A stretch of DNA of 64,000 bases from Candidatus Woesebacteria bacterium. GTDB lineage: Bacteria > Patescibacteriota > Microgenomatia > UBA1400 > MFAQ01. The stretch lies in NCBI GenBank assembly GCA_035389185.1, contig DAOORK010000001.1, forward strand, positions 631,415 through 695,414, in the 5' to 3' direction. This document shows positions 1,808-21,130 of this stretch, piece after piece. Numbering within the stretch: position 1 is the stretch's first letter; every line of letters begins with the position of its first letter. The notes below the pieces were generated by a model that worked only from the letters and a program-made list of their open reading frames with translations, made no database searches and had not been told where the DNA came from. Position numbers and translations under genes: made by a program.

Positions 1808-1920
1808 TCAACAAAAGTATACTAAAATCATTAGGAAAAAACACTATTGTGTTTGTCACGACTAGTTTGTCATGGCTAAAATCACGGCATTTTTGATAAA
1901 CTGAATATAAGAAAATTACT

Positions 1921-2874
1921 ATGATTATTCATGCATTTATCTATTTGCTCTCGTTTATTGGTATTTGGGTAGGCTCTGGCTTGGCTATTAAGTCTGTAGA
2001 AAGGCTCTCTCAATCATTAAGGTTATCCTCGTTTGCCGTTTCATTCTTGGTTCTGGGTCTATTTACCTCCATTAGCGAGCTGTCCGTTGGAATTAACTCT
2101 GTCTTAGAGAACGACCCCGAAGTCTATGTAGGAAACCTCATAGGTGCATCAATTGTGCTATTTATGCTAATTGTGCCGCTTCTGGCGATTGTGGGCAATT
2201 CTATTCGTATTACGCCTGAACTTCAGGGTTTTAACTTGCCCGCTTCACTTGTAGTTATTGCTCTTCCAGTGATCTTGGCAATGGATGGAAGGGTAGGAAG
2301 AACAGACAGCATTATTGCCATGGCATTGTTTGGTTTTCTAATGATTAGTATCCAATCAAAACGAGGTTTATTAGAAAAAATAAAAAACATCAACCCACGA
2401 AATGGCGTAAAGGTTGGAAAAGAGCTGTTAAAAATTCTTTTTGGTGTAGCGGTTATTTTTGTTGCCAGTAAATTTGTAGTTGAACAAACTGTTTATTTTT
2501 CCAATTTTTTACATGTTTCTCCGTTCCTCATTAGTTTATTGTTGATAGCTATTGGCACGAATGTGCCTGAATTGTCCCTCGTCATTCGATCTGCATTCGT
2601 GCGTAATCATCAGATTGCTTTTGGTGATTATGTGGGATCTGCCGCTTTCAATACGCTTCTTTTAGGATTATTGACATTCTTTTATGGGAAGCCAGTGCTT
2701 TTGAATAATAGTTATGTAGTCAGCCTACTTTTTCTTATTGTGGGTTTAGTAGCTTTTTATTACTTTGCTAGGACTAAAAATACTATTTCGCGCGTAGAAG
2801 GTTTAGTGTTGTTGGCTTTATATGCCGCTTTTCTATTAACTGAGATTGGTATCCATGGAGGATTGAATTTCTAG
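1921..2874 (+). CDS. CaCA-family cation/Ca2+ antiporter (YrbG-like), two alpha-repeats
   Basis: 10-TM hydrophobic protein with alpha-repeat motifs SELSVGINSV...GNLIGASIV and GTNVPELSLVI...GSAAFNTLLLG. Confidence 0.65.
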   Translation: MIIHAFIYLLSFIGIWVGSGLAIKSVERLSQSLRLSSFAVSFLVLGLFTSISELSVGINSVLENDPEVYVGNLIGASIVLFMLIVPLLAIVGNSIRITPELQGFNLPASLVVIALPVILAMDGRVGRTDSIIAMALFGFLMISIQSKRGLLEKIKNINPRNGVKVGKELLKILFGVAVIFVASKFVVEQTVYFSNFLHVSPFLISLLLIAIGTNVPELSLVIRSAFVRNHQIAFGDYVGSAAFNTLLLGLLTFFYGKPVLLNNSYVVSLLFLIVGLVAFYYFARTKNTISRVEGLVLLALYAAFLLTEIGIHGGLNF

Positions 2875-4424
2875 TTAAGATTTGACAAAAATCGGGTCAC
2901 CTCTTTGTTGGTTAACTCTGGATATTCCAGATAATTTATCCAGTCAGTTGTCCGAAATTGTATCCATTTCTCGAGCCAAGCTTGACGATTGGCATAATTT
3001 AAGATTGTGTCGAATGGTTTTATCGCATCATATCGGACTATTTTGTCTTCCACTCTAAGGTTCGATAGTACGAGCTTGATTAACTGCCTTCTTTCCTCAA
3101 CTTCTGAACTTTTGAACAGCTCATAAGCCCGATTTGACAGTTCTAGCAGGTATTTAGCCGTGATGTAGTAGTTATCTTCGGCTTCTTGAAGCATTCCTAA
3201 GCGAGTAGTTATATCAGCCTTTTGCTCGTGGAATGACTGAAAGAATTTGTCATACTCATCGTCAGTAATACGCCCTTTGAGTTTATCGAGATAAAGGTTA
3301 TCCATCATTTTTGTTAGCGTTTTGTTCTCTTCATTGAGTTTGTCGAGTTGTTTATTGTGAAAGTCCATTTTGTCTTGATGAAGATTGCTGAGATTTCCGA
3401 CTACTTTATCTAAGACCCAATCGGGGATTTGTAATTGCTTAAATACATCGCCTATTTGCTCGGTAATTGTTTCTTCTCTTAGCCAATCAGCCCCGTGTTT
3501 ACCGTTGTATTGGGTGCAATGGTAATAGACGTGTCCTTTGTGTTTTTCTGGGGTTACAGCCAGCCCACAATGACCGCAACGTAGTAATCCTCGATAGATA
3601 TACGGTTTACCTGCATACTTAAAGGGTTTTTTGTTAAAGCTAGCTTTTACCTGTTGAACTTGGTCAAAAAGTTCTTTGGTTATGATAGGTATGTACTTGT
3701 GTTTGTATTGCTTGTTTTTCCAAGTCATTATGCCGTAGTAGAAGTGGTCTTTTAGAATTTTGTCGGTCATTCCCTTTGACCAATCAACCCCGTACTCGGA
3801 TTTTATCTTTTGTCTTAGTAACTCCATTGAGAAGCTACTGGTTGCATACCATTCATAGGCTTTTTGTACTACCTTTGAGGCAAAATCATCGACTACTATT
3901 TCTGTTTTATCTTTACTAATCGGTTCTCGTTTATAACCATAAGAAGGTCGAGAAGGATAAGTACCCATTCGAAGCATCTGTTCTTGGGCTCGTTTTACGT
4001 TATCGCTGATTGCGTCAGAGTAGTATTTGGCTAGCCCGAGGCTAATACTAAAATTAAACTTTTCTACTGCTGATAACTGGCTATTGATGACTTGTCCGTC
4101 CGAAACAAAATGAAGTTCTACCTCGTCTTTTAATGCTTTGTCATAAAGCATACCGACCCGTTTATCAAAAACATTTCGTGATAATCGGTCTACCTTGTCA
4201 AAACATACAGCGATTTTTTCTTTCTGTTCAAGAACATAGTCGAGGATATTATCAAAGTCATTACGCTTAGTCTTGTATGCACTTTCATCAAAGCTAAACT
4301 TTTCTAGTATTGGAAAGCCTTTGTTATTGCAGTATTTCTCAAGCCTAACGATTTGAGCGGGAAGAGAATTGCCAGCATCTTTTTGTTCTTCTGTGCTTAC
4401 TCTGGCAATTATTACTGCTTTCAT
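2871..4424 (-). CDS. large serine recombinase (resolvase/invertase N-domain, recombinase domain, zinc ribbon, coiled-coil)
   Basis: N-terminal IIARVSTEEQ and DRLSRN catalytic motifs; zinc ribbon CGHCG...YYHC; long C-terminal coiled-coil; 517 aa, typical LSR size. Confidence 0.85.
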   Translation of the reverse strand: MKAVIIARVSTEEQKDAGNSLPAQIVRLEKYCNNKGFPILEKFSFDESAYKTKRNDFDNILDYVLEQKEKIAVCFDKVDRLSRNVFDKRVGMLYDKALKDEVELHFVSDGQVINSQLSAVEKFNFSISLGLAKYYSDAISDNVKRAQEQMLRMGTYPSRPSYGYKREPISKDKTEIVVDDFASKVVQKAYEWYATSSFSMELLRQKIKSEYGVDWSKGMTDKILKDHFYYGIMTWKNKQYKHKYIPIITKELFDQVQQVKASFNKKPFKYAGKPYIYRGLLRCGHCGLAVTPEKHKGHVYYHCTQYNGKHGADWLREETITEQIGDVFKQLQIPDWVLDKVVGNLSNLHQDKMDFHNKQLDKLNEENKTLTKMMDNLYLDKLKGRITDDEYDKFFQSFHEQKADITTRLGMLQEAEDNYYITAKYLLELSNRAYELFKSSEVEERRQLIKLVLSNLRVEDKIVRYDAIKPFDTILNYANRQAWLEKWIQFRTTDWINYLEYPELTNKEVTRFLSNLN

Positions 4425-4427
4425 AGC

Positions 4428-5174
4428 TCATTTCTTGACTGGGGCAATTTGTCTTAGGTATGCGTCAAGAATAGCTTGTTTTAAGTTATCCGACTTTGCC
4501 TCGTAACTTGTAAATTCACCTATATTTTCTCTGTTGAAATGAAGTTGTCCTTCACCAACATTGCCCCTGTGTTGACCCGCTGAATAGTATTTATTTGTCG
4601 CTACTTCGGTTGAAGAAAAGACCCAATATCTAATAACATCTCTCCAAACACCCATCCATACAAATACATCGCAACACTTGGGTTTAACTTGTTGGAAGTT
4701 CATATCAAAAGGCATATCCTCATCTTTTGAGAGAGCCTTTATGTATAAGGGTTCGTGACTATTAAAATCAACAGCCCTTGATGCTTTTACTTCGATTGTA
4801 ACGAACTTGTTATCATCTACGTTTAACATAAAGTCGTATTGACCTGCATAGTTGGGGTCGATTTTTTTGGTCGGTTTAACTAAGTCAGGCACTAACTCTT
4901 TCAAATGTCCTTGAGCCCACAATTCCCCAAAACCTCTTGGGGCACTTATCTCGAAGATATGGAGGTACATATTTCTAGCGATATATTCATCTCTCATCAA
5001 GTAATAATCATCAAGGTTAAGTTTCTTTAACCCCAAGAGAGTAGAAATGATAAATTCATACTCGTTAAAAGGATAAACGGACATTAAGTTATCCAGTTTT
5101 TGCCTCAAAACGGCTTCTTCATCCTTGGATAGCTGAGATATTAAGCTGTCTAATTGGTGTTTTAATGATTGCAT
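4428..5174 (-). CDS. candidate PD-(D/E)xK restriction endonuclease, cognate to the adjacent N6A methyltransferase
   Basis: Motif YDFML...VTIEVKASR fits a D...(E/D)xK nuclease core. The gene starts 2 nt after the upstream MTase gene ends, same strand. Confidence 0.4.
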   Translation of the reverse strand: MQSLKHQLDSLISQLSKDEEAVLRQKLDNLMSVYPFNEYEFIISTLLGLKKLNLDDYYLMRDEYIARNMYLHIFEISAPRGFGELWAQGHLKELVPDLVKPTKKIDPNYAGQYDFMLNVDDNKFVTIEVKASRAVDFNSHEPLYIKALSKDEDMPFDMNFQQVKPKCCDVFVWMGVWRDVIRYWVFSSTEVATNKYYSAGQHRGNVGEGQLHFNRENIGEFTSYEAKSDNLKQAILDAYLRQIAPVKK

Positions 5175-5176
5175 AA

Positions 5177-7126
5177 TTACTTTCTTATTGAATTTTTAAT
5201 ATATTGTTTTTCATCTGTTGTTAGACCAAAGGCATCAAAAACGAACTCATTTAGCTTATCTTCGAGTTTATCCTTTTGAGTACCAGATAACAAATTATCT
5301 ACATCCTTTTCGATTTCGGCAAGAGTTTTATCGTCTATTTGTGGAAAGGGTAATAGTTCAAGGTCGCCTCTTAATACTTTGACCGTATTGAATTTCTTTT
5401 TCCATAAGTATTGAAAGATATTTGAGTTAAGAAAAACCAATACTACTTTTGTCGGGATTTCTGGAATTTTCGGGATGAGTATATTTGCACTATTGAGGGT
5501 TAGAGTTTGCTTATAGTCATAAGCAAAGGCAAGCTCACTTGAAATGAATTTGTAAATCAGCTTCTCCTTCGCTCGATATTTCCATACTGGAGCAACTTGT
5601 TGAAATTCGTCAGGTGTAAATTTGATAAATGAAGTAGCGGGATTAAATGTATATTTCTGTATATCCGAGCCTTTTAGTACCCCCTCATTATTATCTGTTT
5701 TGGTAGTCGAAATAAATTTGCCATTATTACCTGTAACGATACCCAATGCCCAATCTGCATTATCTTTCAATGTAGTGAAACTGTGTTTGTAAATTTTAGC
5801 TATTAACAGTTCGTCTTTTTCAGTAATACTTGTATCAAATGCGAAATCTGAATTATTTATAAATCTGTTCTGCTTGATTTTTGACACAAGTCCATCTTTT
5901 TGCGTAACCTCAATTTCGTTCTGAGCGTCACTTCTTTTTTGAATGGTCAACGTTATTACTGGTGACAACACTTTGCTAAAAACGTTACCTAAATGTTTGA
6001 TGCTTTTTATAGCACTACCCCTTAACAGAAAATCTCTAACATCTCGATGCTGTTTTACCTTTGTAACCGCTTCTGGTAGCACGTAGCAAAGAGAGCCATT
6101 ATCGTTCAATAGACTTAAACCCCTTACTAAAAAGTATGAAAAGGCCTCGTTCGAAATGATATTTGGATAAACCTTTCTCAACATTTCACTTTCTTCTTTT
6201 GAGAAGTGGTAACCCCAAGGTGGATTTGTTGCAATGATGTCAAACCTACCATCAGGGTTTTCTGTGAGGCTGTTTGCTACAAACATATTTGGATAAAAAT
6301 CAATTTCTGGATAGGTTGTTATAAGGTTTATTTTTGCAATCTGTACTGCTATTGGGTCAATATCGTATCCCCATAAAAGTAGCGGGTCAGGGATATACCT
6401 AGAAAAAGCAACAAGAAACTGTCCCGTTCCACAACAGGGGTCGAGAACCTTTGAGCCCTTCTTTATCTGACTAGATAAGTCTTCAACGATACCATCAATT
6501 AGTGTTTTAGGGGTGTAATAAGAACCGCCTTGGGACTTTTTACCCTCGTCGAGCAAGGATTGATATAAAACACCAAGGCTGTCAAAGCTGAACACATCAT
6601 CTACGTTTAGTAATTCTTGAAGGTCAGAAAGATTTATCTTTCCTAGTTTTTCTTCCCATTCAAGTATTACCTTCTTTATATTATTGTTCTTGAATTTAAC
6701 TTCACTTAGGGTTGAAACAAATTTATCGAAGGTCGCTAATTTGGTTTTTTTTAGAACAGAAAGACTGTGAATGAGTAGGGCGGTTTGGAGTGGTACTTGG
6801 TTTTTATTTATCTGTTCGATATAAGACTGTAATAGAGGTAGTTTGTCTTTATGACTTAATTGTTCAATAGGGATAAAGGTAGATTTTGAATTTCTTTTAT
6901 TCGCTCTATTGTTTAGTCGTTCGGTTTTTCCATTATGAATGTCGGTTTTAAGTTGTTCAATTTGTTTCTTTTCTAATAATTTTCCGCTACCCATTGGGGA
7001 ATAAGCCAGTTGACCTGTTTTAATCCAATTCCTTACGGTAGCAGTGGATACACCCAACAGCTCACTAGCCCGAAGAATGTCGAGTAGGTCTGCTTGGTCA
7101 TTTTCAAAAAGGCTAACTTGCTTCAT
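5177..7126 (-). CDS. gamma-class N6-adenine DNA methyltransferase with N-terminal excisionase/MerR-like HTH and C-terminal target-recognition region
   Basis: HTH LLGVSTATVRNWIKTGQL; motif I VLDPCCGTGQF; motif IV IIATNPPWGY; about 300 aa of TRD-like C-terminus. Confidence 0.8.
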   Translation of the reverse strand: MKQVSLFENDQADLLDILRASELLGVSTATVRNWIKTGQLAYSPMGSGKLLEKKQIEQLKTDIHNGKTERLNNRANKRNSKSTFIPIEQLSHKDKLPLLQSYIEQINKNQVPLQTALLIHSLSVLKKTKLATFDKFVSTLSEVKFKNNNIKKVILEWEEKLGKINLSDLQELLNVDDVFSFDSLGVLYQSLLDEGKKSQGGSYYTPKTLIDGIVEDLSSQIKKGSKVLDPCCGTGQFLVAFSRYIPDPLLLWGYDIDPIAVQIAKINLITTYPEIDFYPNMFVANSLTENPDGRFDIIATNPPWGYHFSKEESEMLRKVYPNIISNEAFSYFLVRGLSLLNDNGSLCYVLPEAVTKVKQHRDVRDFLLRGSAIKSIKHLGNVFSKVLSPVITLTIQKRSDAQNEIEVTQKDGLVSKIKQNRFINNSDFAFDTSITEKDELLIAKIYKHSFTTLKDNADWALGIVTGNNGKFISTTKTDNNEGVLKGSDIQKYTFNPATSFIKFTPDEFQQVAPVWKYRAKEKLIYKFISSELAFAYDYKQTLTLNSANILIPKIPEIPTKVVLVFLNSNIFQYLWKKKFNTVKVLRGDLELLPFPQIDDKTLAEIEKDVDNLLSGTQKDKLEDKLNEFVFDAFGLTTDEKQYIKNSIRK

Positions 7127-7289
7127 ATTTCTTTAAGAATTGGGATAAATTATCCTTGCTTATTCTGTATTGTTTGCCAGCTTTGTATGCAATTAAGCGG
7201 TTGGCACGTATCCAACGGTATACGGTCAGATATGCAACTTTGAGGGTCTTGGCCACTTCCTCGATGGAAAAGTATTGCTCGTCAGTCAT
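7113..7289 (-). CDS. excisionase-family HTH DNA-binding protein (Xis-like)
   Basis: EEVAKTLKVAYLTVYRWI...GKQYRI matches the excisionase/MerR HTH pattern; start set at the internal Met. Confidence 0.55.
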   Translation of the reverse strand: MTDEQYFSIEEVAKTLKVAYLTVYRWIRANRLIAYKAGKQYRISKDNLSQFLKKYEAS

Positions 7290-8430
7290 ATAAGTTATAT
7301 TTATCATTATTTAACATTAACCCTTCAAAATCAACTAGTTTTAATGGTTCAAAACGGGTCAAATGTTCACGGATTACCCCGAGTGGGCTTTTAGTCGTTG
7401 GAAGTTTTATTGTTTTAGCTTCTGCAATCAACCTATACCAACTTCTTTGACCATATTTACCAAACATATTTCTAAGTTCACGAGGGGTTGTGCTATCAAA
7501 TGCCTGCTTTAATCCAAAGAGTTGCATTGTCTTCCGTATACCGATATGAGGATTATTGATTGCAAGGTCTGCTAACAATGAGTTGGAGGTCGTCGGTTTG
7601 TAATCAAATAGGAGTAGCCGCTTGCTCTCTAGCTCATCGAGGTGGTGAAGTAAAATCCGTTGAGCGATTGTTGGGTTAAATAGGTTTTTTAAGGTCAATT
7701 CGGACTGGATACCCAAAGTACGGAATAGCTGTCCTATCTTTTGGCGTTTGTTAAGTCGTACTTCCATTCTCAATACCTCTAGTCGCTTTCTTTCTTTGAA
7801 AGCTTCAAAAAGATTGAGTTGTATGGCGTTATCGCCCTCGATTGCTCGCTTTTCGCTTTTGTTAGCCATTTCAAGGTCTTTTAGCTTGTCATAAAAGGCA
7901 ACCTCGTATGAGTTGCTATGCCATTTGAAGCTATGACCGTCGTTGCGGTAGTCCGTTTGGTTTACATCTAATGCCAATGAGAAATTTGCTTGTTTAATCT
8001 TACCTATAAGCAAGTGAGGAGTTGTACCGTTAGTCAGGGGTATATTTTTGGAGTAATGAATTGCTGAAACAGGGGCATTTTCCAATATGCTCGTAAAGAC
8101 CCCGACACCCATTTCTTTTAGCCTTGACTGTAAAAGTGCGACAACTGGCGTAAAGTCTGTCTCGCCTAATTCGTCAAAGTTGTTTCCGTATAGTAGTTTG
8201 GGTGCTGAAAACTCTATGGCTAAGGTAGCTTCGTGCCTTCCCGTTGTATTAAATCTTTTGGTCATAGTCAATCTTGGTTTATAAATACCGTTTTTCAACT
8301 CTGATTTGGTAGGGTTTTGCACGAGCGTAAAATAACCCCTCAAAGCGTTTTGTGTTTCTTTTTGAAAGTATGTTTTATCCATAACCCAAAACATATCTTT
8401 ACTAAGTGTTAGTCTTATTGTGTCCAACAT
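7282..8430 (-). CDS. putative replication initiation protein of the element (Rep_trans-like)
   Basis: 382-aa protein in an operon with Xis and the recombinase; weak resemblance to rolling-circle/phage replication initiators; no motifs confidently assigned. Confidence 0.35.
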   Translation of the reverse strand: MLDTIRLTLSKDMFWVMDKTYFQKETQNALRGYFTLVQNPTKSELKNGIYKPRLTMTKRFNTTGRHEATLAIEFSAPKLLYGNNFDELGETDFTPVVALLQSRLKEMGVGVFTSILENAPVSAIHYSKNIPLTNGTTPHLLIGKIKQANFSLALDVNQTDYRNDGHSFKWHSNSYEVAFYDKLKDLEMANKSEKRAIEGDNAIQLNLFEAFKERKRLEVLRMEVRLNKRQKIGQLFRTLGIQSELTLKNLFNPTIAQRILLHHLDELESKRLLLFDYKPTTSNSLLADLAINNPHIGIRKTMQLFGLKQAFDSTTPRELRNMFGKYGQRSWYRLIAEAKTIKLPTTKSPLGVIREHLTRFEPLKLVDFEGLMLNNDKYNLYD

Positions 8431-8695
8431 ACATTTTTGTTACATCTTCAAACTTAGAAATGATTACTTTTTCGATTTCTTCCGCAACTTTTCGGTTAAT
8501 CGGATGAAAGATATTGAAATTACCATTTGCACCTTTGCGAGTGGGGTAGGTCAACCGATACCCGCCTTGCGGTCTGGTATAGATACCGATTGACCCCATA
8601 TAAAAGCTGTCGTTATAGACTAAGCTCGCAAAACCCACTAGACCATCCGTTGGTTTAACTGGCACTACTTGAATTTCGCTTATACGGTTTTGCAT
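8402..8695 (-). CDS. SpoVG-like nucleic-acid-binding protein
   Basis: Aligns with SpoVG: VVPVKPTDGLVGFASLVYNDSFYMGSIGIY...NIFHPINRKVAEEIEKVI versus the SpoVG ...GRMRAIASITLD...FVVHDIRV...ITHPINSSTR pattern. Confidence 0.55.
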   Translation of the reverse strand: MQNRISEIQVVPVKPTDGLVGFASLVYNDSFYMGSIGIYTRPQGGYRLTYPTRKGANGNFNIFHPINRKVAEEIEKVIISKFEDVTKMYVGHNKTNT

Positions 8696-8937
8696 ACTTT
8701 CTCGTTACGTTTTGACCGTCGGTCAATTTGGATAAGTAAGGAAAAGAAGTCGGTTAGTCGTTTTAGCTCATCGGCAGGCAGAATGGGACCTTGTACGGGC
8801 CGTGTTTGCTCTTGTGGTGTTGGTTTGACGACTTCACTCGTTTCCATTGAGCAAAGTCTAGAAAACACTCGGAGGATTGTCGTTGTGGTAGGGAGAACTA
8901 GGTACTCTTAGGTATAAAAAGGGACAAAAGGGGACGT

Positions 8938-9981
8938 TTAGTGAGGGAGTACTAGCTTACCCCCACCTTTTACAAGCTTGATAAGAGGTTTCTTCATTTC
9001 TTCTAAATCCTTCTTTGTTATCGGATTTCTGAACTCAATAGCATTCTTTGACACGCTAAAGAAAACCTCTTTTGTATCTCCTTCAAAGCCCAGGTTTTCA
9101 ACTATCTTGTGTAGTGATTTAGTTAGTTTTCCTCCTACAGTTTTTTCAATTTCATCTATACCTATTCTTCTATTCGGGTTCTCATATAAGAACGAAAAAA
9201 CTAGGTCATTTTCGCTGTTAAAATCTGGTCTGCCTATTTGGGCGTTATTCATTAAGATTTGCCTCTGTTTGGTATAGGTAATCTCATAAACAACGACAGT
9301 TTCATCAGGGGATTTGTTGGAGGTTTTGTCTTCTTGCTCTTCTTTATTGATATTTATGTTTTTTTGCCCAAAATTGTTTACTTGCTCCAATACCTCAAAA
9401 AATCTTGCTATATTCAGAGTTAAGCCTGACGATAATGTCATATAAGCGGTGGTAAAGTTTTTGACTACGCCTATATTCTTGAGATAAGTTAAGCTTCTTA
9501 TATAGGTATTGATTATGTCGTCTACGTCCTCAGGCTCATAGCCTTCAATTTCTCTGGCTGAAGAAATAAAGTCTATTGCAAGTTTTTCGGATTGGACTAA
9601 CTCTAGTTGTTCCTCAATCAAATGCATTATGTGGCTAATATTCTTAAAGTTTGTTTCCGATAGGTTTTCTATTGTACTTTTTTGCTGGATAAGATACTGA
9701 GCATACCAATCGTCAAATTTCGGATTTATATCAACGAGTAGATAGTCAAGATTTTTAGGCTGTGAGCTAGGTGATAGCAGTCTGTTGTAAATCGGGTTTA
9801 TGGTTAAAATCTTGTTTTCGTATTCGAGCTTAGAAAGTATGTCCTGAACCTCTTCTTTCCCGATTTTTTCTAAGAAATTATCCTCTTTAATATACAGTTT
9901 AGTTGAGTGTTCATTTCGTGAGGCTTTTTTTGCTTCAACTAATGCTTTGAGAATTAAACCAAGTTTTACTTCGTATTTCAT
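8938..9981 (-). CDS. hypothetical protein (347 aa, island-encoded)
   Basis: Long ORF with island-like A-rich codon usage; no recognised motifs. Confidence 0.5.
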   Translation of the reverse strand: MKYEVKLGLILKALVEAKKASRNEHSTKLYIKEDNFLEKIGKEEVQDILSKLEYENKILTINPIYNRLLSPSSQPKNLDYLLVDINPKFDDWYAQYLIQQKSTIENLSETNFKNISHIMHLIEEQLELVQSEKLAIDFISSAREIEGYEPEDVDDIINTYIRSLTYLKNIGVVKNFTTAYMTLSSGLTLNIARFFEVLEQVNNFGQKNININKEEQEDKTSNKSPDETVVVYEITYTKQRQILMNNAQIGRPDFNSENDLVFSFLYENPNRRIGIDEIEKTVGGKLTKSLHKIVENLGFEGDTKEVFFSVSKNAIEFRNPITKKDLEEMKKPLIKLVKGGGKLVLPH

Positions 9982-10027
9982 AGGTCATTACATCTTCAAA
10001 TTTATCTTTGATTATAATTGCTTAATA

Positions 10028-10813
10028 ATGAAAAAGTATCGGCTTTATATTGACGAGTCTGGTAGTCATGAATATTCGGATAAGGATTCTATAAAGAGTC
10101 GTTATTTGGGTCTGCTAGGTGTAGTGGTGGAGTCTGGCGAGTATGAAACCAATATCCAGCCTAGGGTTATTGAACTCAAAAAAATGTTTTCGAATGACGC
10201 AGATGATTTGGTAGTATTACACCGTGATGAAATTGCTAACTTACAAGGACCGTTTTCAAAGCTATCCGATGAGGAATTTAAGAATAACTTTGACAGTAAA
10301 TTAAAAAGTTTGTTTAAAGAAGGGGAGTACCTCTTGCTTGGTGTTGTCTTAGACAAGAAAACTCATTATGCTCGCTACAAAACATCTGCTCTACACCCTT
10401 ATCATTACTGTCTCAATGTTATTTTGGAAAGATATGTCTTTTATTTAGAAGAAGTGGGAGGAGTCGGGGATGTAATGTCAGAAGCTAGAGGTAAAAATGA
10501 AGATAGTGCTTTAAGGGGTGCGTATTCTAACTTTTTTAACAATGGAACGTATTTTTGTAAGGCTCCACGAGTTCAGGCAAAATTAACTTCGAAAGCGATT
10601 AAGCTGAGAACAAAAGAAAACACGACTCAAGGACTAGAAATGGCTGACTTGCTGGTCTTAGCAACTAAAATTCTCATTCTCTTCTTATATAAGAAGATTG
10701 GACCATTAACTGGTAATTTCAACAAACAGGTAATGAGATGGGTTTGGTCCAAGTTCAGGCGTGAGCTAATATCCAAGAGAGTTAAGGGCTATGGAATAAA
10801 GTTGATTGAGTAA
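10028..10813 (+). CDS. DUF3800-family protein
   Basis: Starts MKKYRLYIDESGSHEY, the characteristic DUF3800 N-terminal YxDESG motif; start set at the internal ATG at 10028. Confidence 0.55.
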   Translation: MKKYRLYIDESGSHEYSDKDSIKSRYLGLLGVVVESGEYETNIQPRVIELKKMFSNDADDLVVLHRDEIANLQGPFSKLSDEEFKNNFDSKLKSLFKEGEYLLLGVVLDKKTHYARYKTSALHPYHYCLNVILERYVFYLEEVGGVGDVMSEARGKNEDSALRGAYSNFFNNGTYFCKAPRVQAKLTSKAIKLRTKENTTQGLEMADLLVLATKILILFLYKKIGPLTGNFNKQVMRWVWSKFRRELISKRVKGYGIKLIE

Positions 10814-10922
10814 ATAATGAAAAAGCCGATTACTCGGCTCGTTCACGATGCTCTTGCGAGGCATCCCCCTCCGATGAACGGATTAAGTAAATAATAGCAT
10901 TTGTTTTAGAGTTTGTGTGCTA

Positions 10923-12614
10923 CTAGGCACAAATTGGTTGAATTTTGAAGGTTTCAAACACTGTTTGGATGTTCTGTAAGCTAAATCCAAACTTTATTTC
11001 TCGGTTCTTAAATGCGTTTACCAAGGGGAGCCAAGCTGGATTTGAAGGTATCAAAAGAGGATTATTGAGCTGTATATCGCGATATTCCTGAGATTCGATC
11101 CAATCTTCTTTTAATTCCGACCATTTTTCTTGATTTGCGAAGACTTTATAGCGTTCTTTCAGATCTATCCGTACTTTTTTGTTGTGTAAATAGAGGTTCG
11201 ATCCAACTTTGTTGAGGATGTAGCGTTTATCTTCAACCTCGCCATTCATAAATCTATCTCTGGCACGGTTGGCATAGTCAATGGTTGTGCGTATTGCCTT
11301 ATACTCATTTTGACTGTTATCGCTTAAGAGTAGAGCCTTGAGTTGCTCAATCTTCTTATTTAGCTCCCGTTTTTTGCTTTCATAGGTAGTTTCGTCAATG
11401 CTGTTGTTTAGGTAAACATCTAAAAGACGATCTAGACTTGTTTGTGCCTTATCAAGCGCTGACTTTTGAGATTTCTTGATATCGGTAGCCTCATCAGCTT
11501 TACTCTGCTCAAGATAGTCAATCCAGCGGTTTGCCCAGTCGATAAAATCTTGGGGTGGTTTTATTTTTTCAAGTTCTTGAGCAGTTTCAGCTTTTAGATC
11601 TATTTCTGTTATTGGATCTTCGTGACATTCAATCTTATGGTTTTTTCTGGTGCAGTGGTGGTAGGTGTAGGTAACAGTTCTATTTGTTCCTCTGTAATAC
11701 TTGGTTTTGACAGTTCCGGTTATGGAGCATCCACAGGTTTCGCATAGGTACAGCCCGTTTAAATCGAGCCTGTGGCTTCTACGTACAGGTCTTCCTTTTC
11801 TGCCGAGCATTTTTTGTATTTGGTCAAACTGTTCTGGTGTGACCATGGCTTGGTGTCTACCGTGATACCACTTCCCACTCCCTTTTGGCCATTCATAATC
11901 GCCGGAATAGAAAGGATTTGTTAATAAGTTGTAAAAAGTTGACCTTGGTATCGGTAGACCAGCCTTGTTTGTTAATTTCCACACGTCTGTTGCTGTTTTC
12001 CAAATGTCGATTACTTGCTCACCGTCAAGGACTTTGAGTAACGATTTTCTAATGAGGTCAAACCTTTTTTTGTCTGGTCTAATTGTTTTGTAGCCCTTTT
12101 TCCCTAGGGGATTGTTTTTATATCCAGTTGGCGCTGGGGCGGGGTACCAACCCTTTTCTGCTTTAGTACGCATACCACGTTGGGAGCTTATTCCCTTATT
12201 GTCGTTTTCTAGCTTTGCTTGACTGCAATCAAGATTGAAAAGGAATTTATCATAGGGGTTGTCTTTATAAACCCTTGAAGCAGTGGTTATTTGCAGGAGG
12301 AACTTTTGATCCATGAGATATATCAACGCTCCAGTATCAACCGAGTTTCGCGATAACCGATCAGCACTCCAAGCAAGGATGGCGTTTGCTTCACCGTTCT
12401 TAATTTTCTCGAGCATTGTATTGAAGGCTAATCTCCCGGGTTTCTTGGCTGATTTTGATTCTGAAAGTGTCTCGGTTGTTTTTAGCTTGTTATTTGATTT
12501 GATGCGATCAAGTTCTTTTGTTTGGGATTCAAGCGAAAGGGCTTGTCTCTCCTCTGATTCTGAAGACTTACGGCAATAGACTATGTGTTTAATTGTTTTT
12601 GTTTCTTCGTTCAT
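10923..12614 (-). CDS. large serine recombinase, second copy
   Basis: IVYCRKSSESEERQ...DRLSRN resolvase domain; recombinase domain; zinc ribbon CETCGC...YHHC; C-terminal coiled-coil. Confidence 0.85.
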   Translation of the reverse strand: MNEETKTIKHIVYCRKSSESEERQALSLESQTKELDRIKSNNKLKTTETLSESKSAKKPGRLAFNTMLEKIKNGEANAILAWSADRLSRNSVDTGALIYLMDQKFLLQITTASRVYKDNPYDKFLFNLDCSQAKLENDNKGISSQRGMRTKAEKGWYPAPAPTGYKNNPLGKKGYKTIRPDKKRFDLIRKSLLKVLDGEQVIDIWKTATDVWKLTNKAGLPIPRSTFYNLLTNPFYSGDYEWPKGSGKWYHGRHQAMVTPEQFDQIQKMLGRKGRPVRRSHRLDLNGLYLCETCGCSITGTVKTKYYRGTNRTVTYTYHHCTRKNHKIECHEDPITEIDLKAETAQELEKIKPPQDFIDWANRWIDYLEQSKADEATDIKKSQKSALDKAQTSLDRLLDVYLNNSIDETTYESKKRELNKKIEQLKALLLSDNSQNEYKAIRTTIDYANRARDRFMNGEVEDKRYILNKVGSNLYLHNKKVRIDLKERYKVFANQEKWSELKEDWIESQEYRDIQLNNPLLIPSNPAWLPLVNAFKNREIKFGFSLQNIQTVFETFKIQPICA

Positions 12615-13066
12615 ATGATTGTTTTACTAACAATTAATGCTCTCTTTTGCTCGTCAAGTCTAGTGAACAGCTTATTCTTTTTAGTCTTATTTATTTCTGT
12701 ATTATTAGCGGGAGTTACATTTCCACTATATGGAGGAAGTGGATTTCCTGTATTAAAAGAAGTCCAGTTCCTTAAAAACTTGTCAGGACTGAGGATTAAA
12801 TAAGTATTGTGTTTGTCGTTCGGATACTTGGTTATTTGGATTAAGTCATACTTTACGAGAATTTTTAGGTACTCTCTAATCATTCTGTCTGTTCGGTTCA
12901 TCTTTTTTGCCAATAACTTTTCGGTGGGGAAGCAGGAATATCGTTCTGGAAAACCGTAGCAGAAGCTTCTAATTATGATGTAAAGCGCCTTTATTTGTGG
13001 TTCAAGCAGGGGGGAATAGAGAATGAAATTCTCAACTTGTGTATAGCCTTCCTTTTTGTTTTTCAT
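12611..13066 (-). CDS. winged-helix/HTH DNA-binding protein (putative replication or transcription regulator)
   Basis: ...LAKKMNRTDRMIREYLKILVKYDLI... HTH-like segment; the gene starts at the recombinase gene's stop codon. Confidence 0.35.
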   Translation of the reverse strand: MKNKKEGYTQVENFILYSPLLEPQIKALYIIIRSFCYGFPERYSCFPTEKLLAKKMNRTDRMIREYLKILVKYDLIQITKYPNDKHNTYLILSPDKFLRNWTSFNTGNPLPPYSGNVTPANNTEINKTKKNKLFTRLDEQKRALIVSKTII

Positions 13067-13513: not shown

Positions 13514-14380
13514 TTAATCAGCAATAAGTCGGAAAATACCACTCCAGTATTTTGGGGTGGGTAGTTGGTATCTCTCAACGACGTCGTAATAATTTCGTTT
13601 TAGCTTAGCTTGAAGCTTTTCTGTCTGTTTAAGGTAAATTTCTTCTAGTTCGTCTTCTGGTAGGTTTCCATATTTTTCTTCAATGAGATTTCCGGTTGCA
13701 CGCTCAATTGCGGCAGATATTAGAGTGTTGTATTCACCACGGTTTTTATCATTATTGAGCATGATTAATGATTCTTCTACCCTGAGGAATGATTTGATTT
13801 TTGATCTATCTTGCGAGCTTATGTCATGACGTTTTCTTTTTAACACCCTGCTTATGCTCTTGTCTGGAGTTAAGTCGGATAAGAACTCTTGGGCATCGGT
13901 TAGTGCATTGAACACATCTTCTTTTGAGGTATTTATGCTTATTGGAATATATGTTCCTTGGGTTATTGGTGAAATGGCGGACGCTATGACGAAGTTTCTC
14001 TCAGCGATCAATCCGTTAGGTTTACGGTCAAACACAACGAAATCTACCAGTAGCTCGGGTGGAAGATTTAATTTAGTAGCCAATCTAATCTCGTCCTTTA
14101 GTAGTCTAGAGAGGATGAACCAGTTCATCATGGTAAAAACATGTGGGTCTAGCGGAGTGTTTTCTTTGTAGGTGGACTTCCAAGTATTGGCAAATTCATT
14201 TGCTAGGTCGAGATGGTTTTTCCCACTCCATTCGTATAGCGCTTTCTCATCAACAAATGGCCTTGTTATCCCAAGTTTCTCTCGGGCATTTATGGCTAGC
14301 TTGAAGGCAATATAGCTATTGAAAAACAACTGAACGCGAAGGGAGTAGTAATCTAACCCCTCAATTATTTTCATACTCAT
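13514..14380 (-). CDS. hypothetical protein, possibly Abi-like
   Basis: 288 aa; the N-terminal YYSLRVQLFF...Y segment loosely resembles the Abi_2 YYRLSxY motif; weak. Confidence 0.4.
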   Translation of the reverse strand: MSMKIIEGLDYYSLRVQLFFNSYIAFKLAINAREKLGITRPFVDEKALYEWSGKNHLDLANEFANTWKSTYKENTPLDPHVFTMMNWFILSRLLKDEIRLATKLNLPPELLVDFVVFDRKPNGLIAERNFVIASAISPITQGTYIPISINTSKEDVFNALTDAQEFLSDLTPDKSISRVLKRKRHDISSQDRSKIKSFLRVEESLIMLNNDKNRGEYNTLISAAIERATGNLIEEKYGNLPEDELEEIYLKQTEKLQAKLKRNYYDVVERYQLPTPKYWSGIFRLIAD

Positions 14381-15790: not shown

Positions 15791-16855
15791 ATGGCAAAGA
15801 AAATTAGGGTTGTAGACCTATTCTGTGGTATTGGTGGTCTAACCCATGGACTGATCAAGGAAGGTCTAGAGGTGGTGGCGGGAATAGACAACGATAATTC
15901 ATGCAAGTTTGGTTACGAGCATAACAATAGGGCAAAATTTATCGGTAAAGATATTCTTGAGGTTACGGCTGGTGAGGTAAGTAAGTTGTTTGGTAAAGGG
16001 GCGATCAGAGTCCTTGCGGGATGTGCTCCTTGTCAACCTTTCTCCAGATTGAATCTTAAAGAAATAACAAAAAAGCAACTTCAGCCACTTGAAAAATTTG
16101 CACAGTTGATTGAGGAGGTTAAGCCAGATATTGTTTCCATGGAAAATGTTAGTGAGTTGGCAAAAATGGACAAATATCCCATTTTTAAGACTTTCCTTGA
16201 TACCTTGGAAAGGAATGGTTACAGATATAAATATGAAGTTGTTGATGTTTCCGAATACGGCGTCCCCCAAAGCAGGAGGAGGCTTGTTTTGTTGGCTTCA
16301 AGATTTGGCGAGATTGAATTGGTGAAGCGGACACATAAAGACAACCGTGTGACTGTAAAAGACGTTATAAGAGATCTTGAGCCGATTCGGGATGGCGAAG
16401 TAAGTAGGAAAGACCCTCTCCATCGATCAAGAAAACTAAACGAGATTAATCTTAGGAGAGTAAAAGCTACTCCCCATGATGGTGGGGATTCGAGTGCGTG
16501 GAGTGAAGATCTTATTCTGAAATGTCACAGAAAAGAGTCTGGAAGTACTTATAAAAAAACTGTTTATGGTCGTATGCGATGGAATGAGCCAGCGCCTACA
16601 ATGACGACACAGTGTGTTGGGTTGGGAAATGGCCGTTTTGGTCACCCAGAGCAGGACAGGGCAATTAGCTTAAGGGAAGCGGCACGGTTTCAAACCTTTC
16701 CTGATAACTATCAGTTTTTTGATCCAAATACTCCATTTGTGACTGCTCATATAGCTAGGTTTATTGGTAATGCCGTGCCTGTGAGGCTAGGGTCTATAAT
16801 TGGGGCAAGTATAAAAATGCATATAAGTAGAAATGCCAAATCAATTCACATTTGA
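15791..16855 (+). CDS. dcm: DNA (cytosine-5)-methyltransferase
   Basis: Motif I LFCGIGG; motif IV GCAPCQPFS; motif VI MENV; motif X RFIGNAVPV. Confidence 0.9.
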   Translation: MAKKIRVVDLFCGIGGLTHGLIKEGLEVVAGIDNDNSCKFGYEHNNRAKFIGKDILEVTAGEVSKLFGKGAIRVLAGCAPCQPFSRLNLKEITKKQLQPLEKFAQLIEEVKPDIVSMENVSELAKMDKYPIFKTFLDTLERNGYRYKYEVVDVSEYGVPQSRRRLVLLASRFGEIELVKRTHKDNRVTVKDVIRDLEPIRDGEVSRKDPLHRSRKLNEINLRRVKATPHDGGDSSAWSEDLILKCHRKESGSTYKKTVYGRMRWNEPAPTMTTQCVGLGNGRFGHPEQDRAISLREAARFQTFPDNYQFFDPNTPFVTAHIARFIGNAVPVRLGSIIGASIKMHISRNAKSIHI

Positions 16856-18545
16856 GTTATCACTAAGTGTCCTAAATCATTTAGGCAGAAACCTTTATAG
16901 AAGCTTCGTCACAATATTGGGGGAGGCGATCTCAAATTCATGGGATGCAGATTCAAATAAGGTCAACATATACATTGATCGTGAACACAACAGCCTGTGT
17001 GTTAGAGATGATGGTGTGGGAATGACTGCTGATGAATTTCAGAACAAGTTTCTGAGAATTGGCTATTCAAAACGTAATTCTGAAGGTAGTAGCTCACCTG
17101 CTGGTAGACCTTATATAGGTAGAAAGGGTATCGGGAAGCTCGCTTTACTTTCATGCGCTGACAAGATTCATGTCATTAGCAAAAAAAGTGGTGGTGAATA
17201 TGTAGGAGGTGTGGTGGTTAACTCTGAGCTTGATGATGCAATCAGAGATGATTTATTGACTTCTCAATATCCACTGTCTGATATGGATATGAGCAAATTT
17301 GAGGACGTGATTGGTGGTCATGACCACGGGACAATAATATATTTTGAGAACATAAAAGATGGGGTTAAGAATAGTTTGACGTTTTTAAAGAAAGCTATTG
17401 CGTTGTATTTTCGTTTTTCGTTGATTGATCAATCGTTTAAGATTTTTTTAGGAGACGATGATGAAATTACTTACGCCGATCTCGAGGATTTATCGAGCAA
17501 AACAGAGTTTTTGTGGAAGGTAGGTGAATATGAGGATCCGTATGTAGAGAACTTAGAGGCTCGTTTTACTACAAAAGATAATGAGAAGAGGGGGATTGAA
17601 ATTGATGGAGCTTATGGTTTTGTTGCCTCTGTAAAAAAGCCGCGTGATCTAAAAATCTTGACCACTGATGAGCGGGTGGGGGTTGACTTGTTTGTAAACG
17701 GGCGTTTGAGAGAAAGAGATATTTTGAAGCACATCCCCACAGCAAGGTTGGCGGAAAACTATTTATATGGACAGATTCATCTTGACGATATGAATGACGA
17801 GCAAGATCGTTTCACAAGTAGTCGTGAAAGCGTTGTAGCGGATGACGATAAATATGAGCAATTCTTGGAAGTAATGCGAAGTAAAATATTGGAGATTGTT
17901 AACGACTGGGATAAATGGAGAATTAAGCACAGGGAAGATGGGGATCAGGAAAACGATAATATGCCTAAGGCAGAGAGAAAGTCGAGAGAGCTGTTTAATC
18001 AGATCGCTGGAGAATATGAATTGCCATCGGGAAATGCTAATGCTGGAAAAGTAGATGCATGGGTTGATTCATTGGCTGATGACGCTCAATACAACTTTCG
18101 TTCGTATGCAGAGTGCTTTGTATCCGAGAATTTGCTTCGTAAGCATATTGAAGATGGCGGTGTGGCACCTACGTCTTGTATGAACCCCGATTTGCAGGGA
18201 AATACATGTGAAGATAGATTTGATGAAGAAGCTGGTAATACCAGCTTGTGTAGTTTTTGTAAGGCTGAGAGAAGTAAACAGGGATTGCAAATTCAAAAGA
18301 ACGAAGCGGGAACGTCGATACAGATCAGAGAAGCAGAAGAGAATCCATTAATGTATATGGATTACATAGATCTAGCAAAGATAGCCGACGATGACATACT
18401 CAAAGAAGAAGATAAACCATATAAGCCATTGAGAAACTCGGTAATGCACACTTCGAGATTGACACAAGCTGCTAAGACGAAGTTGACCTCTGTTTTTGAT
18501 AATGTTGTTGCGACTGTAAAGCAGTTGGTCGGGTCTAACAGTTGA
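16833..18545 (+). CDS. GHKL (Bergerat-fold, MORC/MutL-like) ATPase, candidate restriction/defence component
   Basis: N-box EAISNSWDA; G1 DDGVGM; G2 GRKGIGKLA; Cys-rich C-terminus; the gene overlaps the dcm 3' end by 23 bp. Confidence 0.7.
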   Translation: MPNQFTFELSLSVLNHLGRNLYRSFVTILGEAISNSWDADSNKVNIYIDREHNSLCVRDDGVGMTADEFQNKFLRIGYSKRNSEGSSSPAGRPYIGRKGIGKLALLSCADKIHVISKKSGGEYVGGVVVNSELDDAIRDDLLTSQYPLSDMDMSKFEDVIGGHDHGTIIYFENIKDGVKNSLTFLKKAIALYFRFSLIDQSFKIFLGDDDEITYADLEDLSSKTEFLWKVGEYEDPYVENLEARFTTKDNEKRGIEIDGAYGFVASVKKPRDLKILTTDERVGVDLFVNGRLRERDILKHIPTARLAENYLYGQIHLDDMNDEQDRFTSSRESVVADDDKYEQFLEVMRSKILEIVNDWDKWRIKHREDGDQENDNMPKAERKSRELFNQIAGEYELPSGNANAGKVDAWVDSLADDAQYNFRSYAECFVSENLLRKHIEDGGVAPTSCMNPDLQGNTCEDRFDEEAGNTSLCSFCKAERSKQGLQIQKNEAGTSIQIREAEENPLMYMDYIDLAKIADDDILKEEDKPYKPLRNSVMHTSRLTQAAKTKLTSVFDNVVATVKQLVGSNS

Positions 18546-18741
18546 TATGACTCTAAAACGGGCTAGAAGAATCTTAGGGAAAAATGGGAAAGGGCTCACT
18601 GATGGAGAGCTTACAAAAGAGATTGAGATGGCAAGTTTTCTTGCGCAATTGGTTTTAAGTGTTGCGCGAACTAAAAAGCTGCCTTAGCCTTAATAAGCTA
18701 TAATTTCGGTTGGGAATACATATTCTTGATTGAAGAAAAGA

Positions 18742-19959
18742 ATGGCAAATAAGAATCTATCAAAAGCAAAAAACGCAAAGAACGATGAGTTTTATACTCA
18801 ATTTCTCGATATTCAAAAAGAAATTGAGGCGTATCTGGAGTATGACCCTAACACTTTCCGTAGCAAAGTGGTTTATAGCAATTGTGACGATCCGTTTGAA
18901 AGCAATTTTTTCAGATACTTTGTACTTAATTTCAATAAACTTGGGTTAAAACAGCTTATTACCACAAGTTATAAACCATCGCCGGTAGCCAATACGCAAC
19001 TACTGCTGTTTGGTGATGATATAACGCTTGCAAAATCTAAAGGACGTCCGAAAATAACGGCTAACAAATTTATTATCAACGAAGTTCGTGACCTAGATGG
19101 TGATGGTGAGTTTAATCTTAAGGATGTTGCTACCCAACTTAAATCAAATAAACACAACGAGTGGTGTCCTTTAGAGGGAGACGGTGACTTTCGTAGTGAT
19201 GAGTGTATAGAACTCCTAAAGCAATCGGACATTGTGGTAACCAATCCTCCATTTAGTCTCTTCCGAGAGTATGTTAGACAACTTGTGGACTACGACAAGA
19301 AATTTGTTGTTATTGGCAATATGAACGCAATTACTTATAAGGAAATTTTCCCACTAATTAAAACAAACAAATTGTGGCTGGGAGCAACCGGAAATGGTAG
19401 TGATATGGTTTTTGCAGTGCCAAATGGTACTGAAATAGCGGAGTCTGATAGGCAGAAGGCGGCCAGACTGGGGTATGTTGGGAATTATACGAGACTTGGC
19501 AATTCTTGCTGGTTCACAAACCTTGATCATGGGAGACGTCATAAACCGCTGCCATTAATGAAGGAAGCTGATGTAATAAAATTCAGCACAAAGAAGCCGT
19601 TTGAAAAATATGACAACTACGATGCAATTGAAGTTTCAATGGTTAAAAATATCCCCAGTGATTATGGTGGTGTTATGGGTGTGCCTATTAGTTTTCTGGA
19701 TAAATATAATCCTGATCAATTTGTGATTTTAGGAGCGACACAGAGAGGCTGTCACGACGAGGTTCCTGATACGAAAAAATACGATGATTATTGGGAAGTT
19801 AGACAAAACGGCGAAAGAACAGGATCATCTGGAGGAAAAACGAATGAAAACGCAAATTTGGTGGGTAACGATGGTAAGAAGAACTATTTTATAAATAATG
19901 AGGGTCGTATAATTCAGTCAGCCTATCAAAGAATCTTTATAAGGCGCAAAAATAAATAA
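18742..19959 (+). CDS. EcoRI-methylase-like adenine (NPPF) DNA methyltransferase
   Basis: N-terminal AKNDEFYTQ; catalytic motif [10 protein letters not shown]; ATG at 18742 chosen over the TTG at 18730. Confidence 0.65.
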
Positions 19960-19960: not shown

Positions 19961-21130
19961 ATGCATACAACATTAAGGACTACTATTTCTGTAAAAGATA
20001 TATGTGATGGTTTTGTATACAACGAATTGGAAGGTAAAGGACTGTTCGGTTTATCTGGCAATCTGACTATCCAACCCGAATATCAACGAAATTATATTTA
20101 CGCTTCAGATGGTGGAAAAAGAGAGATAGCGGTCATTGATTCTATACTTAGAGATTATCCTATTGGCTTAATTTATTTTAATAAACTTTCCGACGATAAG
20201 TTAGAGGTTTTAGATGGTCAACAGCGTATCACTAGTATTGGACGTTTTGTCACAGATAAATTTGCAATTAAAGACGAGAATGGAATGGAACAGTATTTCA
20301 GCGGCTTGGCAAGTGATAAGAAAACCAAGATATTAGAGACAAAACTGCTGATCTATGAATGTGAAGGAGCAGAAAGTGAGATAAAAGAATGGTTCAAAAC
20401 AATCAACATTGCCGGTGTTCCGCTTAATGATCAAGAATTATTGAACGCGGTTTATTCTGGGCGTTTTGTAACTATGGCTAAAGAGGAGTTTAGTAATAGT
20501 CAAAATGCTAACATCCATAAATGGAGTGCTTACATAAAGGGGAGTGTTAACAGACAAGAGTTTTTGGAGCGAGCTCTTGAATGGGTGAGTAGGGGAAAGA
20601 TTGGTGATTATATGAGTCTTCATCGTAATGATGGTGACATTGATGAGCTAAAAACCTACTTTAATACTGTAATTGACTGGGTATCGAGTGTCTTTGTAGA
20701 TGTCGAGAGTGAAATGAGTGGATTAGAGTGGGGAAGAATGTACGAGCAATATCGTGAAAATACCTATAACCCCATCAAAATATCAGAAGATGTACATAGA
20801 CTTTACGGAGACCCTTATGTAAAAAATCGTAAAGGAATTTTTGAATATATACTTGGTCGTTCTAAAAACGCGAGATTGCTGGATGTCAGGGTTTTTGATG
20901 AAGTAACTAAGAAGTCGGTTTATACAAGACAGACTGATTTGGCAAGATCTAAGGGTGAATCGAACTGTCCCCTTTGTGCAATTGGTCATGACGCTGCTAA
21001 GTCTAAAGTTTGGGAGTTTGGAGAGATGGACGCTGACCATGTAGCAGCGTGGAGCAAGGGCGGGGCAACTAACCCCAGTAACTGCCAGATGCTCTGCAAA
21101 ACGCACAATCGAGCAAAAGGAAATCGATAA
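19961..21130 (+). CDS. DUF262 (ParB/Srx-like, DGQQR) N-domain fused to an HNH nuclease; candidate restriction endonuclease (GmrSD-like)
   Basis: [13 protein letters not shown]; C-terminal CPLC...[12 protein letters not shown]...[13 protein letters not shown]/Zn-finger; starts 1 nt after the MTase stop. Confidence 0.7.

Follow-up and report, generated by a model that had tools for sequence, protein, structure and literature searches.

The window analysed in this study is a 64,000-nt stretch of the chromosome of a member of Candidatus Woesebacteria (Patescibacteria; contig DAOORK010000001.1, positions 631,415-695,414), and all positions given below follow the numbering of this window. Two adjoining genes on its minus strand encode a DNA methyltransferase (M) and a small nuclease (R), which very probably form an orthodox two-gene Type II restriction-modification (R-M) system carried on a small serine-recombinase element. 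The M gene (5177..7126, minus strand) encodes a 649-aa gamma-class N6-adenine DNA methyltransferase, which is present in GenBank as "N-6 DNA methylase" from Candidatus Woesebacteria (HOX96443.1). The R gene (4428..5174, minus strand) encodes a 248-aa predicted PD-(D/E)xK Type II restriction endonuclease, identical in sequence to a GenBank "hypothetical protein" (HOX96442.1). A preliminary description of this DNA had already proposed an element-borne Type II system here; both open reading frames (ORFs), the spacings of 2 and 3 nt on either side of R, and the motifs DPCCGTGQF, NPPW and D...EVK were recovered at the positions given in it by translation of the ORFs and reading of the codons.

The junctions were read directly. 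The M stop codon TAA (5179-5177) is followed by 2 nt (tt) and by the R start codon ATG at 5174, and the R stop codon TGA (4430-4428) by 3 nt (gct) and by the ATG at 4424 of a gene for a large serine recombinase. M and R are the fourth and fifth genes of a six-gene array on one strand, in the order SpoVG-like gene, gene for a 382-aa protein, excisionase-type helix-turn-helix (HTH) gene, M, R, and serine recombinase. The ORFs of the array overlap or abut, and M starts inside the gene that precedes it. Thus, the start of transcription is probably upstream of 8695, with probable co-expression of the R-M genes and the recombinase; the M-R pair in the window is not an independent operon. A scan for promoters and terminators between 2500 and 10000 performed no better than on shuffled sequence.

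The methyltransferase and the nuclease

Pfam N6_Mtase was matched by M over residues 182-425 (E 2.8e-23), and a match to Eco57I was also observed. Motif I, which binds S-adenosylmethionine (DPCCGTGQF, residues 229-237; 6416..6442, minus strand), is followed by the catalytic motif IV (NPPW, residues 301-304; 6215..6226, minus strand) and then by a C-terminal TaqI-like target-recognition domain (residues 483-593; 5348..5680, minus strand; Pfam TaqI_C, E 6.6e-20), which is the order of the gamma class. The family was aligned and scanned for domains using 41 sampled sequences with about 44% overall identity. Residues D229, C231, C232, G233, and G235 of motif I and all four residues of motif IV (N301, P302, P303, W304) are invariant in this sample, and TaqI_C was detected in 41/41 homologues. 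Two PADLOC models of the type MTase_II were matched strongly (PDLC03348, E 4e-114; PDLC03356, E 9e-81), and fold comparison placed M in the superfamily of solved gamma-class N6-adenine methyltransferases. M is a single-polypeptide gamma-class N6-adenine methyltransferase resembling TaqI, BseCI, and CamA, with a small HTH_17 domain at its N-terminus. Its product would be N6-methyladenine in DNA, as judged from the NPPW motif and the family.

With M.TaqI, M.BseCI, and CamA the window M shares the gamma class, the single chain, and the TaqI-like C-terminal recognition domain; identity to these enzymes is 20-22%, and M differs from them by an extra N-terminus of about 180 residues, which includes HTH_17 and an R-A-N-K...F-x-P-x-E motif. 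This extension is the norm in the family, since the best 120 of the homologues found in a database search (3,183 clusters at 90% identity, E <= 1e-10) all measure 640-669 aa and align over 96-100% of the query. The HTH_17 domain (excisionase/MerR-like) spans residues ~14-64 (6935..7087, minus strand; HTH_17 E 4.4e-5, MerR 1e-3, TIGR01764 1.2e-3); in translation, residues 23-40 read LLGVSTATVRNWIKTGQL. In the structural model residues 14-64 form a compact strand-helix-turn-helix-wing-helix unit, followed by a low-confidence linker (65-80) in which the predicted local distance difference test score (pLDDT) is below 50 at residues 70-76. The R-A-N-K...F-x-P-x-E motif (residues 74-88; 6863..6907, minus strand) falls in this predicted flexible linker, and its residues R74, A75, N76, K77, F84, P86, and E88 are invariant in the 41 sequences.

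The preliminary description had assigned an N-terminal HTH of the excisionase/MerR type to M and had called such a fusion unusual. The assignment is secure at the level of the family: HTH_17 was found in 37/41 sampled homologues (best E 7e-8), and L24, T30, N33, and W34 of the domain are invariant in all 41 sequences. The match in the window sequence itself, however, covers residues 20-50 with 24.1 bits and falls under the Pfam gathering score of 27. The fusion proved to be standard in a family that numbers over 3,000 clusters at 90% identity. It is also already part of the PADLOC methyltransferase profiles, because the protein encoded by the separate 64-aa excisionase-family HTH gene (7113..7307, minus strand; TIGR01764 E 1e-15, HTH_17 E 8e-13) aligns to their first ~50 positions (8-54 and 4-50 in PDLC03348 and PDLC03356). 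The separate HTH gene, which had been missing from the preliminary description, shares a 14-nt overlap with the start of M. BLASTP gave no alignment between its product and the M N-terminus, and hence no sign that the neighbouring gene was recently copied to form the fused HTH.

R matched PADLOC REase_II PDLC03414 over nearly the whole model (E 9.2e-72, 239.6 bits; residues 18-238 against profile positions 26-241 of 244), while Pfam, NCBIfam, and PDB sequence searches returned nothing. The earlier statement that R has no other assigned function thus holds for Pfam, NCBIfam, and GenBank, but not for PADLOC, where the family is modelled as a Type II restriction enzyme. The putative catalytic residues D114...E128-V-K130 (YDFML...TIEVK; 4785..4835, minus strand) are encoded by gac (4835-4833), gaa (4793-4791), and aaa (4787-4785), and all three are invariant in 41 close homologues. 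In the structural model D114 lies just before a strand at 115-120, and E128 and K130 lie within a strand at 123-133. Fold comparison placed R in the PD-(D/E)xK superfamily, with NhoI, Eco15I, I-Ssp6803I, RecU, and Hjc as the top neighbours; a Foldseek search of R against the PDB gave no significant result. Confident homology to a non-nuclease family did not emerge: a permissive Pfam scan of the 41 R homologues yielded scattered weak matches (e.g., DUF7048 and NOV_C), and a Pfam scan of 10 distant family representatives yielded none. Likewise, tblastn of R against plasmid and phage collections gave no match. R belongs to the PD-(D/E)xK superfamily and, judged from sequence and predicted fold, is a predicted Type II restriction endonuclease.

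No solved structure for any member of the R family was found in PDB sequence and Foldseek searches. The closest solved structures are NhoI/Eco15I and I-Ssp6803I, at 8-15% identity and with only ~110-120 residues aligned. NhoI and Eco15I belong to the BisI family of modification-dependent nucleases (PMC11347163). Enzymes of the BisI family carry a PD-QxK site and need 5-methylcytosine, whereas R carries D...ExK, an extra N-terminal helical region of ~100 residues, and a QHRGNxGEGQLH motif, which is conserved in its family.

The family of R is large. At 90% identity 4,593 clusters were found (E <= 0.001), of which the best 120 are 64-94% identical to R and come from many bacterial phyla and archaea. 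A profile search of 1.84 billion representatives gave 587 clusters at 50% identity (E <= 0.001). Of 73 full-length sequences of this wider family, 62 retain the complete D/E/K triad; in the others mostly two or three of the residues are lost jointly, as expected if they act as one site. Among the distant members, P0355, P0374, P0402, P0340, and P0398 have mostly lost D114, E128, and K130 together (e.g., N/G/G or T/C/G) and are otherwise preserved, with R133 and F160 still in place. Such triad-less proteins may be inactivated nucleases or may have been repurposed.

Genomic context and the serine-recombinase element

The context of R was compared in 80 related loci from species-representative genomes (L001-L080). 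A methyltransferase gene lies directly upstream of R, on the same strand, in 78/78 assessable loci; the remaining two end at a contig edge and were excluded. The upstream partner is an HTH-fused gamma-class M in 42 loci and a beta-class N6_N4_Mtase of ~330 aa in the other 36. Seven of the beta-class enzymes were scanned with Pfam and showed N6_N4_Mtase only, with no HTH. Constant adjacency to a methyltransferase gene, whichever of the two unrelated classes it encodes, is the pattern expected of a cognate restriction enzyme. This context is the strongest argument for R as a predicted restriction enzyme, and other roles are hard to reconcile with it.

Across the loci R has diverged far less than the gamma-class M beside it: its median identity is 66%, that of M 41.7%, and in 99% of 1,406 locus pairs the R value is the higher. 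R identity is 66% within the gamma group, 68.6% within the beta group, and 64% between them, with no split matching the partner class. The usual pattern is the reverse, restriction enzymes evolving faster. Conservation of R at ~65% across bacterial phyla and archaea, against ~42% for the gamma-class M, and its tolerance of a change of methyltransferase class could conceivably reflect an extra constraint on the nuclease beyond recognition of its site.

In most genomes the pair stands alone: no recombinase accompanies it in ~36 of the 42 gamma loci and in all beta loci. Three of the stand-alone pairs, in Gallionellaceae (L061, L065, and L077), were observed right after the same housekeeping gene (upstream ORFs ending in ...VRMAVMSTLAG), again with no recombinase. 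This shared position suggests vertical inheritance or a common insertion point in that lineage.

In the window the array ends with the large serine recombinase (517 aa; 2871..4424, minus strand), the probable integrase of the element, in which Pfam Resolvase, Recombinase, and Zn_ribbon_recom were matched along with partial matches to the NCBIfam models XisF and CcrB. The array opens with the SpoVG-like gene (97 aa; 8402..8695, minus strand; Pfam SpoVG, E 1.5e-9), an 80%-identical homologue of which occupies the same position in L001. The second gene (7282..8430, minus strand) encodes the 382-aa protein, which is conserved in the block, with homologues at the same position in L001 (47% identity) and L028 (34%). 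No family could be assigned to it: Pfam, NCBIfam, PADLOC, and PDB gave no match, and the sole lead is a weak match to a PHROG "replication protein" (E 0.017).

The same recombinase-ended block was found in other genomes. L001 carries all of it, from the SpoVG-like gene through the recombinase; L028 carries the 382-aa protein, small HTH, M, R, and recombinase; L044 and L060 carry the small HTH, M, R, and recombinase; and L002 carries the small HTH, M, and R together with a recombinase sequence that aligns over its N-terminal residues 1-92 only. The order M-R-recombinase, with gaps of 2-3 nt, is kept in L001, L028, L044, and L060 at 30-56% recombinase identity, and L001 and L028 also have the same junction of R, 3 nt, and recombinase. 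All five copies lie between unrelated flanking genes. G+C content across the M-R pair is ~35%, compared to ~40% for the window. The recurrence of the block between unrelated flanks and its lower G+C content bear out the description of the pair as element-borne. Among the related loci the free 64-aa HTH gene occurs only in these five recombinase-bearing copies, which makes it a part of the element and not of the R-M pair.

The closest full block, that of L001, is on a 285-kb contig (CAYPVH010000001.1) of a metagenome-assembled genome labelled "uncultured Gammaproteobacteria"; its nuclease is 96% and its M 88% identical to those of the window. All the remaining copies of the block belong to Patescibacteria, and the label of L001 reflects either a binning or labelling error or a transfer across phyla. 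At the recombinase end of the element, the stop of a Na/Ca-exchanger gene (1921..2874, plus strand) and that of the recombinase overlap by 4 nt (2871-2874). Insertion of the element into the 3' end of the exchanger gene is possible, and the element may then supply the last codons of that gene. A search for att-like repeats in 1-16000 found nothing convincing; for a serine recombinase no such repeats are expected. A literature search for R-M systems on serine-recombinase elements in Patescibacteria found nothing specific.

Function, regulation and alternative readings

Taken together, the PADLOC models, the folds, the conserved D/E/K residues, and the adjacency in all assessable loci agree with the earlier reading of the two genes as a Type II pair of a gamma-class M and a small PD-(D/E)xK R. 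In such a system M would mark an adenine in a short, probably palindromic site of the host DNA, and R would cut that site when it is unmethylated. The two enzymes would thereby provide defence against incoming DNA, and cells losing the element would be killed (post-segregational killing). The fused HTH would let M bind a regulatory site and set the ratio of M to R expression, by analogy with M.SsoII and M.Ecl18kI.

The pair is an ordinary one, a new sequence of a family already modelled in a defence-system database. The window proteins fit PDLC03414 and PDLC03348/PDLC03356 strongly, with no structural difference from them. Current understanding of R-M systems is unchallenged by the finding, and its value is modest. 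It lies largely in annotation: the family of R has no Pfam or NCBIfam model and its members are "hypothetical proteins" in GenBank, and the context (78/78 loci) and the fold together allow the family to be labelled confidently as Type II restriction endonucleases. It is common in uncultivated lineages, and its specificity may merit determination. Minor curiosities are the size of the family combined with its poor annotation, the higher conservation of R than of M, and the recurrent block of R-M genes and serine recombinase.

Several results weigh against the picture drawn here, either in full or in the part that concerns regulation. The PADLOC label, which names neither an enzyme nor a recognition site, is a family annotation and not proof by experiment, and no characterised member of the R or M family was found in the literature or databases searched. 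An operator search in 30 stand-alone upstream regions found no perfect 5+5 inverted repeat common to at least four of them; the search was crude, as it demanded perfect 5-nt arms across highly diverged systems. The M gene of the window has no intergenic region before it, and a scan for sigma-70-type promoters gave fewer hits than shuffled sequence. The depletion of palindromes was measured as observed counts against a maximal-order Markov expectation. CTCGAG is the most depleted hexamer palindrome in the 80 loci pooled (observed/expected 0.36, z -9.3), but its rank is 8th among the gamma loci; among the beta loci it is 2nd, behind CAGCTG. The window, with 6 copies where 10 were expected, shows no depletion of it.

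CTCGAG was rejected as a call for the recognition site and is retained as a weak hint only, given its rank in the gamma loci and its frequency in the window. CTCGAG is the site of XhoI/PaeR7I, systems with an endonuclease of ~246 aa and a gamma-class methyltransferase of ~532 aa. The window pair is similar to them in gene sizes and methyltransferase class. Membership of the XhoI/PaeR7I family was not supported: no match to Pfam XhoI was obtained with the window R, with 41 close homologues at E values up to 10, or with 10 distant ones, nor did these sequences match any other nuclease family.

It is possible, although doubtful, that the R-M pair is mainly an addiction module that stabilises the serine-recombinase element, with phage defence as a secondary role. 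R-M systems are known as selfish stabilisers (PMC3874152, PMC2993543). The packing of six genes on one strand and the persistence of the M-R-recombinase order and its short gaps in four other blocks, despite the divergence of their recombinases, are consistent with this role. However, most members of the family stand alone with no recombinase to stabilise (~36/42 gamma loci and all beta loci), and two more Type II pairs lie 8-14 kb away in the window, an arrangement that resembles a defence island. Moreover, addiction and defence can coexist.

The role of the HTH was approached through known self-regulating methyltransferases. It has been shown that the C5 enzymes M.SsoII and M.Ecl18kI repress their own operon via an N-terminal HTH on a flexible linker (PMC3978073, PMC2760811; reviewed in PMC3874152). 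Like them (PMC3978073, PMC2760811), the window M has a small N-terminal HTH and a flexible linker, and most copies of its family have no separate controller. M.SsoII and M.Ecl18kI are C5-cytosine enzymes with divergent genes and a mapped operator; the window M, in contrast, is an N6-adenine gamma enzyme with an HTH of the excisionase/MerR type and co-directional genes, M then R, for which no operator was found. As its catalytic domain is N6_Mtase with NPPW and not C-5 DNA_methylase, M may work like M.SsoII and M.Ecl18kI without being a member of their group.

The search for a separate controller likewise gave little. Control by a C protein found no backing in the window, where the upstream 64-aa gene is of the excisionase type (TIGR01764) and not of the Xre type. 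An Xre-type regulator gene was found upstream in 1 of ~33 stand-alone loci (L011). With nearly all stand-alone loci devoid of such a gene, which fits the idea of the HTH as a regulator, the fused HTH is the obvious candidate. Autoregulation, which had been suggested in the preliminary description, is thus backed by an architecture analogous to that of M.SsoII and M.Ecl18kI, but neither by a shared operator nor by an intergenic region upstream of M. By this analogy it is a plausible role for the HTH, and the most likely one.

Alternatively, the HTH may not be an autoregulator at all. It may add non-specific or site-flanking affinity for DNA, or tether M to DNA or to a partner protein, and the RANK...FxPxE motif of the linker could be part of such a function. 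We consider this unlikely. In its favour are the lack of a common operator upstream of the 30 stand-alone copies and the lack of an intergenic region upstream of M in the window, together with the presence of an invariant motif in the linker, which is predicted to be disordered and, as a plain tether, would have no need of one. R also pairs equally well, in evolutionary terms, with the ~330-aa beta methyltransferases, none of which had an HTH among the seven scanned. On the other hand, Type II systems generally require a regulator (PMC3874152), and most stand-alone pairs have no other. The precedent of M.SsoII and M.Ecl18kI, where the N-terminal HTH on its flexible linker acts as a repressor (PMC3978073, PMC2760811), also speaks for regulation, and the operator test was a crude one, given the perfect arms that it demanded in highly diverged systems.

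A more elaborate proposal, which as a whole we regard as very unlikely, treats the block of HTH gene, M, R, and large serine recombinase as a minimal self-mobilising R-M unit of Patescibacteria. Expression of the integrase would be translationally coupled to the R-M operon, and the excisionase-type HTH, whether free, fused to M, or both, would tie the directionality of recombination to the methylation status. The element would thereby enforce its own retention.

It is highly improbable that R is some other PD-(D/E)xK protein, such as a modification-dependent (BisI-like) enzyme, a junction resolvase, a homing-type nuclease, or an inactive DNA-binding partner. Such roles are represented among its nearest structures (NhoI/Eco15I, PMC11347163; I-Ssp6803I, RecU, and Hjc), the D/E/K residues are missing from ~15% of the wider-family representatives, and the excess of R conservation over that of gamma M (66% vs. 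42% median identity; 99% of pairs) is atypical for restriction enzymes. However, the adjacency to methyltransferases of two unrelated classes in 78/78 loci would be difficult to explain in this way, and a nuclease that cut the methylated form of the site of its own neighbouring M would be lethal to the host. In addition, R matches a restriction-enzyme model of PADLOC over its full length, and its D-ExK site is intact, in contrast to the PD-QxK of the BisI enzymes.

Least credible is the suggestion that the pair is a fragment of a larger defence system, either MADS (MAD1 HTH and MAD2 methyltransferase) or one like BREX: the small HTH matches MAD1 (NCBIfam, 40.2 bits; PADLOC mad1, E 3.7e-8) and M matches MAD2 (PADLOC, E 3.6e-26) and fragments of PglX, but all are far under the curated cut-offs (MAD1 40.2 vs. 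80 bits, MAD2 52.9 vs. 720, PglX 66 vs. 500) and far weaker than the MTase_II match, M and R occur alone in dozens of unrelated genomes, and the suggestion was ruled out by these scores together with the missing partner genes, no other MADS or BREX gene being present in the neighbourhood.

Other features of the window

Two further Type II pairs were identified, both on the plus strand, so that the window holds three within 21 kb, the other two lying 8-14 kb from the M-R pair. The second pair opens with a gene for a C5 cytosine methyltransferase (15791..16855; Pfam DNA_methylase, E 8e-61; PADLOC MTase_II, E 2e-85), and the end of this gene overlaps by 23 nt with that of a 570-aa HATPase_c_3 protein (16833..18545; PADLOC REase_II profiles, E 2.5e-38). 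The third pair consists of a gene of the EcoRI-methylase family (18730..19959; Pfam, E 1.6e-127) and an ORF of 389 aa that begins 1 nt past the methylase stop (19961..21130; PADLOC REase_II PDLC03418, E 1e-81; weaker matches to NsnA and PD-T4-2). Three Type II pairs in 21 kb, one of them inside a recurring serine-recombinase element, provide a small data point on the acquisition and retention of defence genes in the tiny genomes of Patescibacteria.

Between the element and the second pair lie several mobile-type genes, including a second large serine recombinase (10923..12614), an HTH_36/DnaD_N protein (12611..13066), a DUF3800 protein (9947..10813, plus strand), and several ORFs with no family match, among them 8938..9981 and 13514..14380. 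None of the genes of 8938-15447 was found in the related loci, and those of mobile type, located beside the block, may represent a second element in tandem. Scans of the window for tRNA genes and Rfam families found nothing. The rest of the window is ordinary chromosome, with genes for SufB, penicillin-binding proteins, a lactate permease, and the Na/Ca exchanger. GC skew, calculated in 2-kb steps, is very strong and stays at +0.2 to +0.47 over the run of plus-strand genes at 15000-56000, and it is near zero or negative in the region of the element at 1-9000. A bias of the host chromosome linked to coding strand or replication is the probable cause, the element being oriented the other way.

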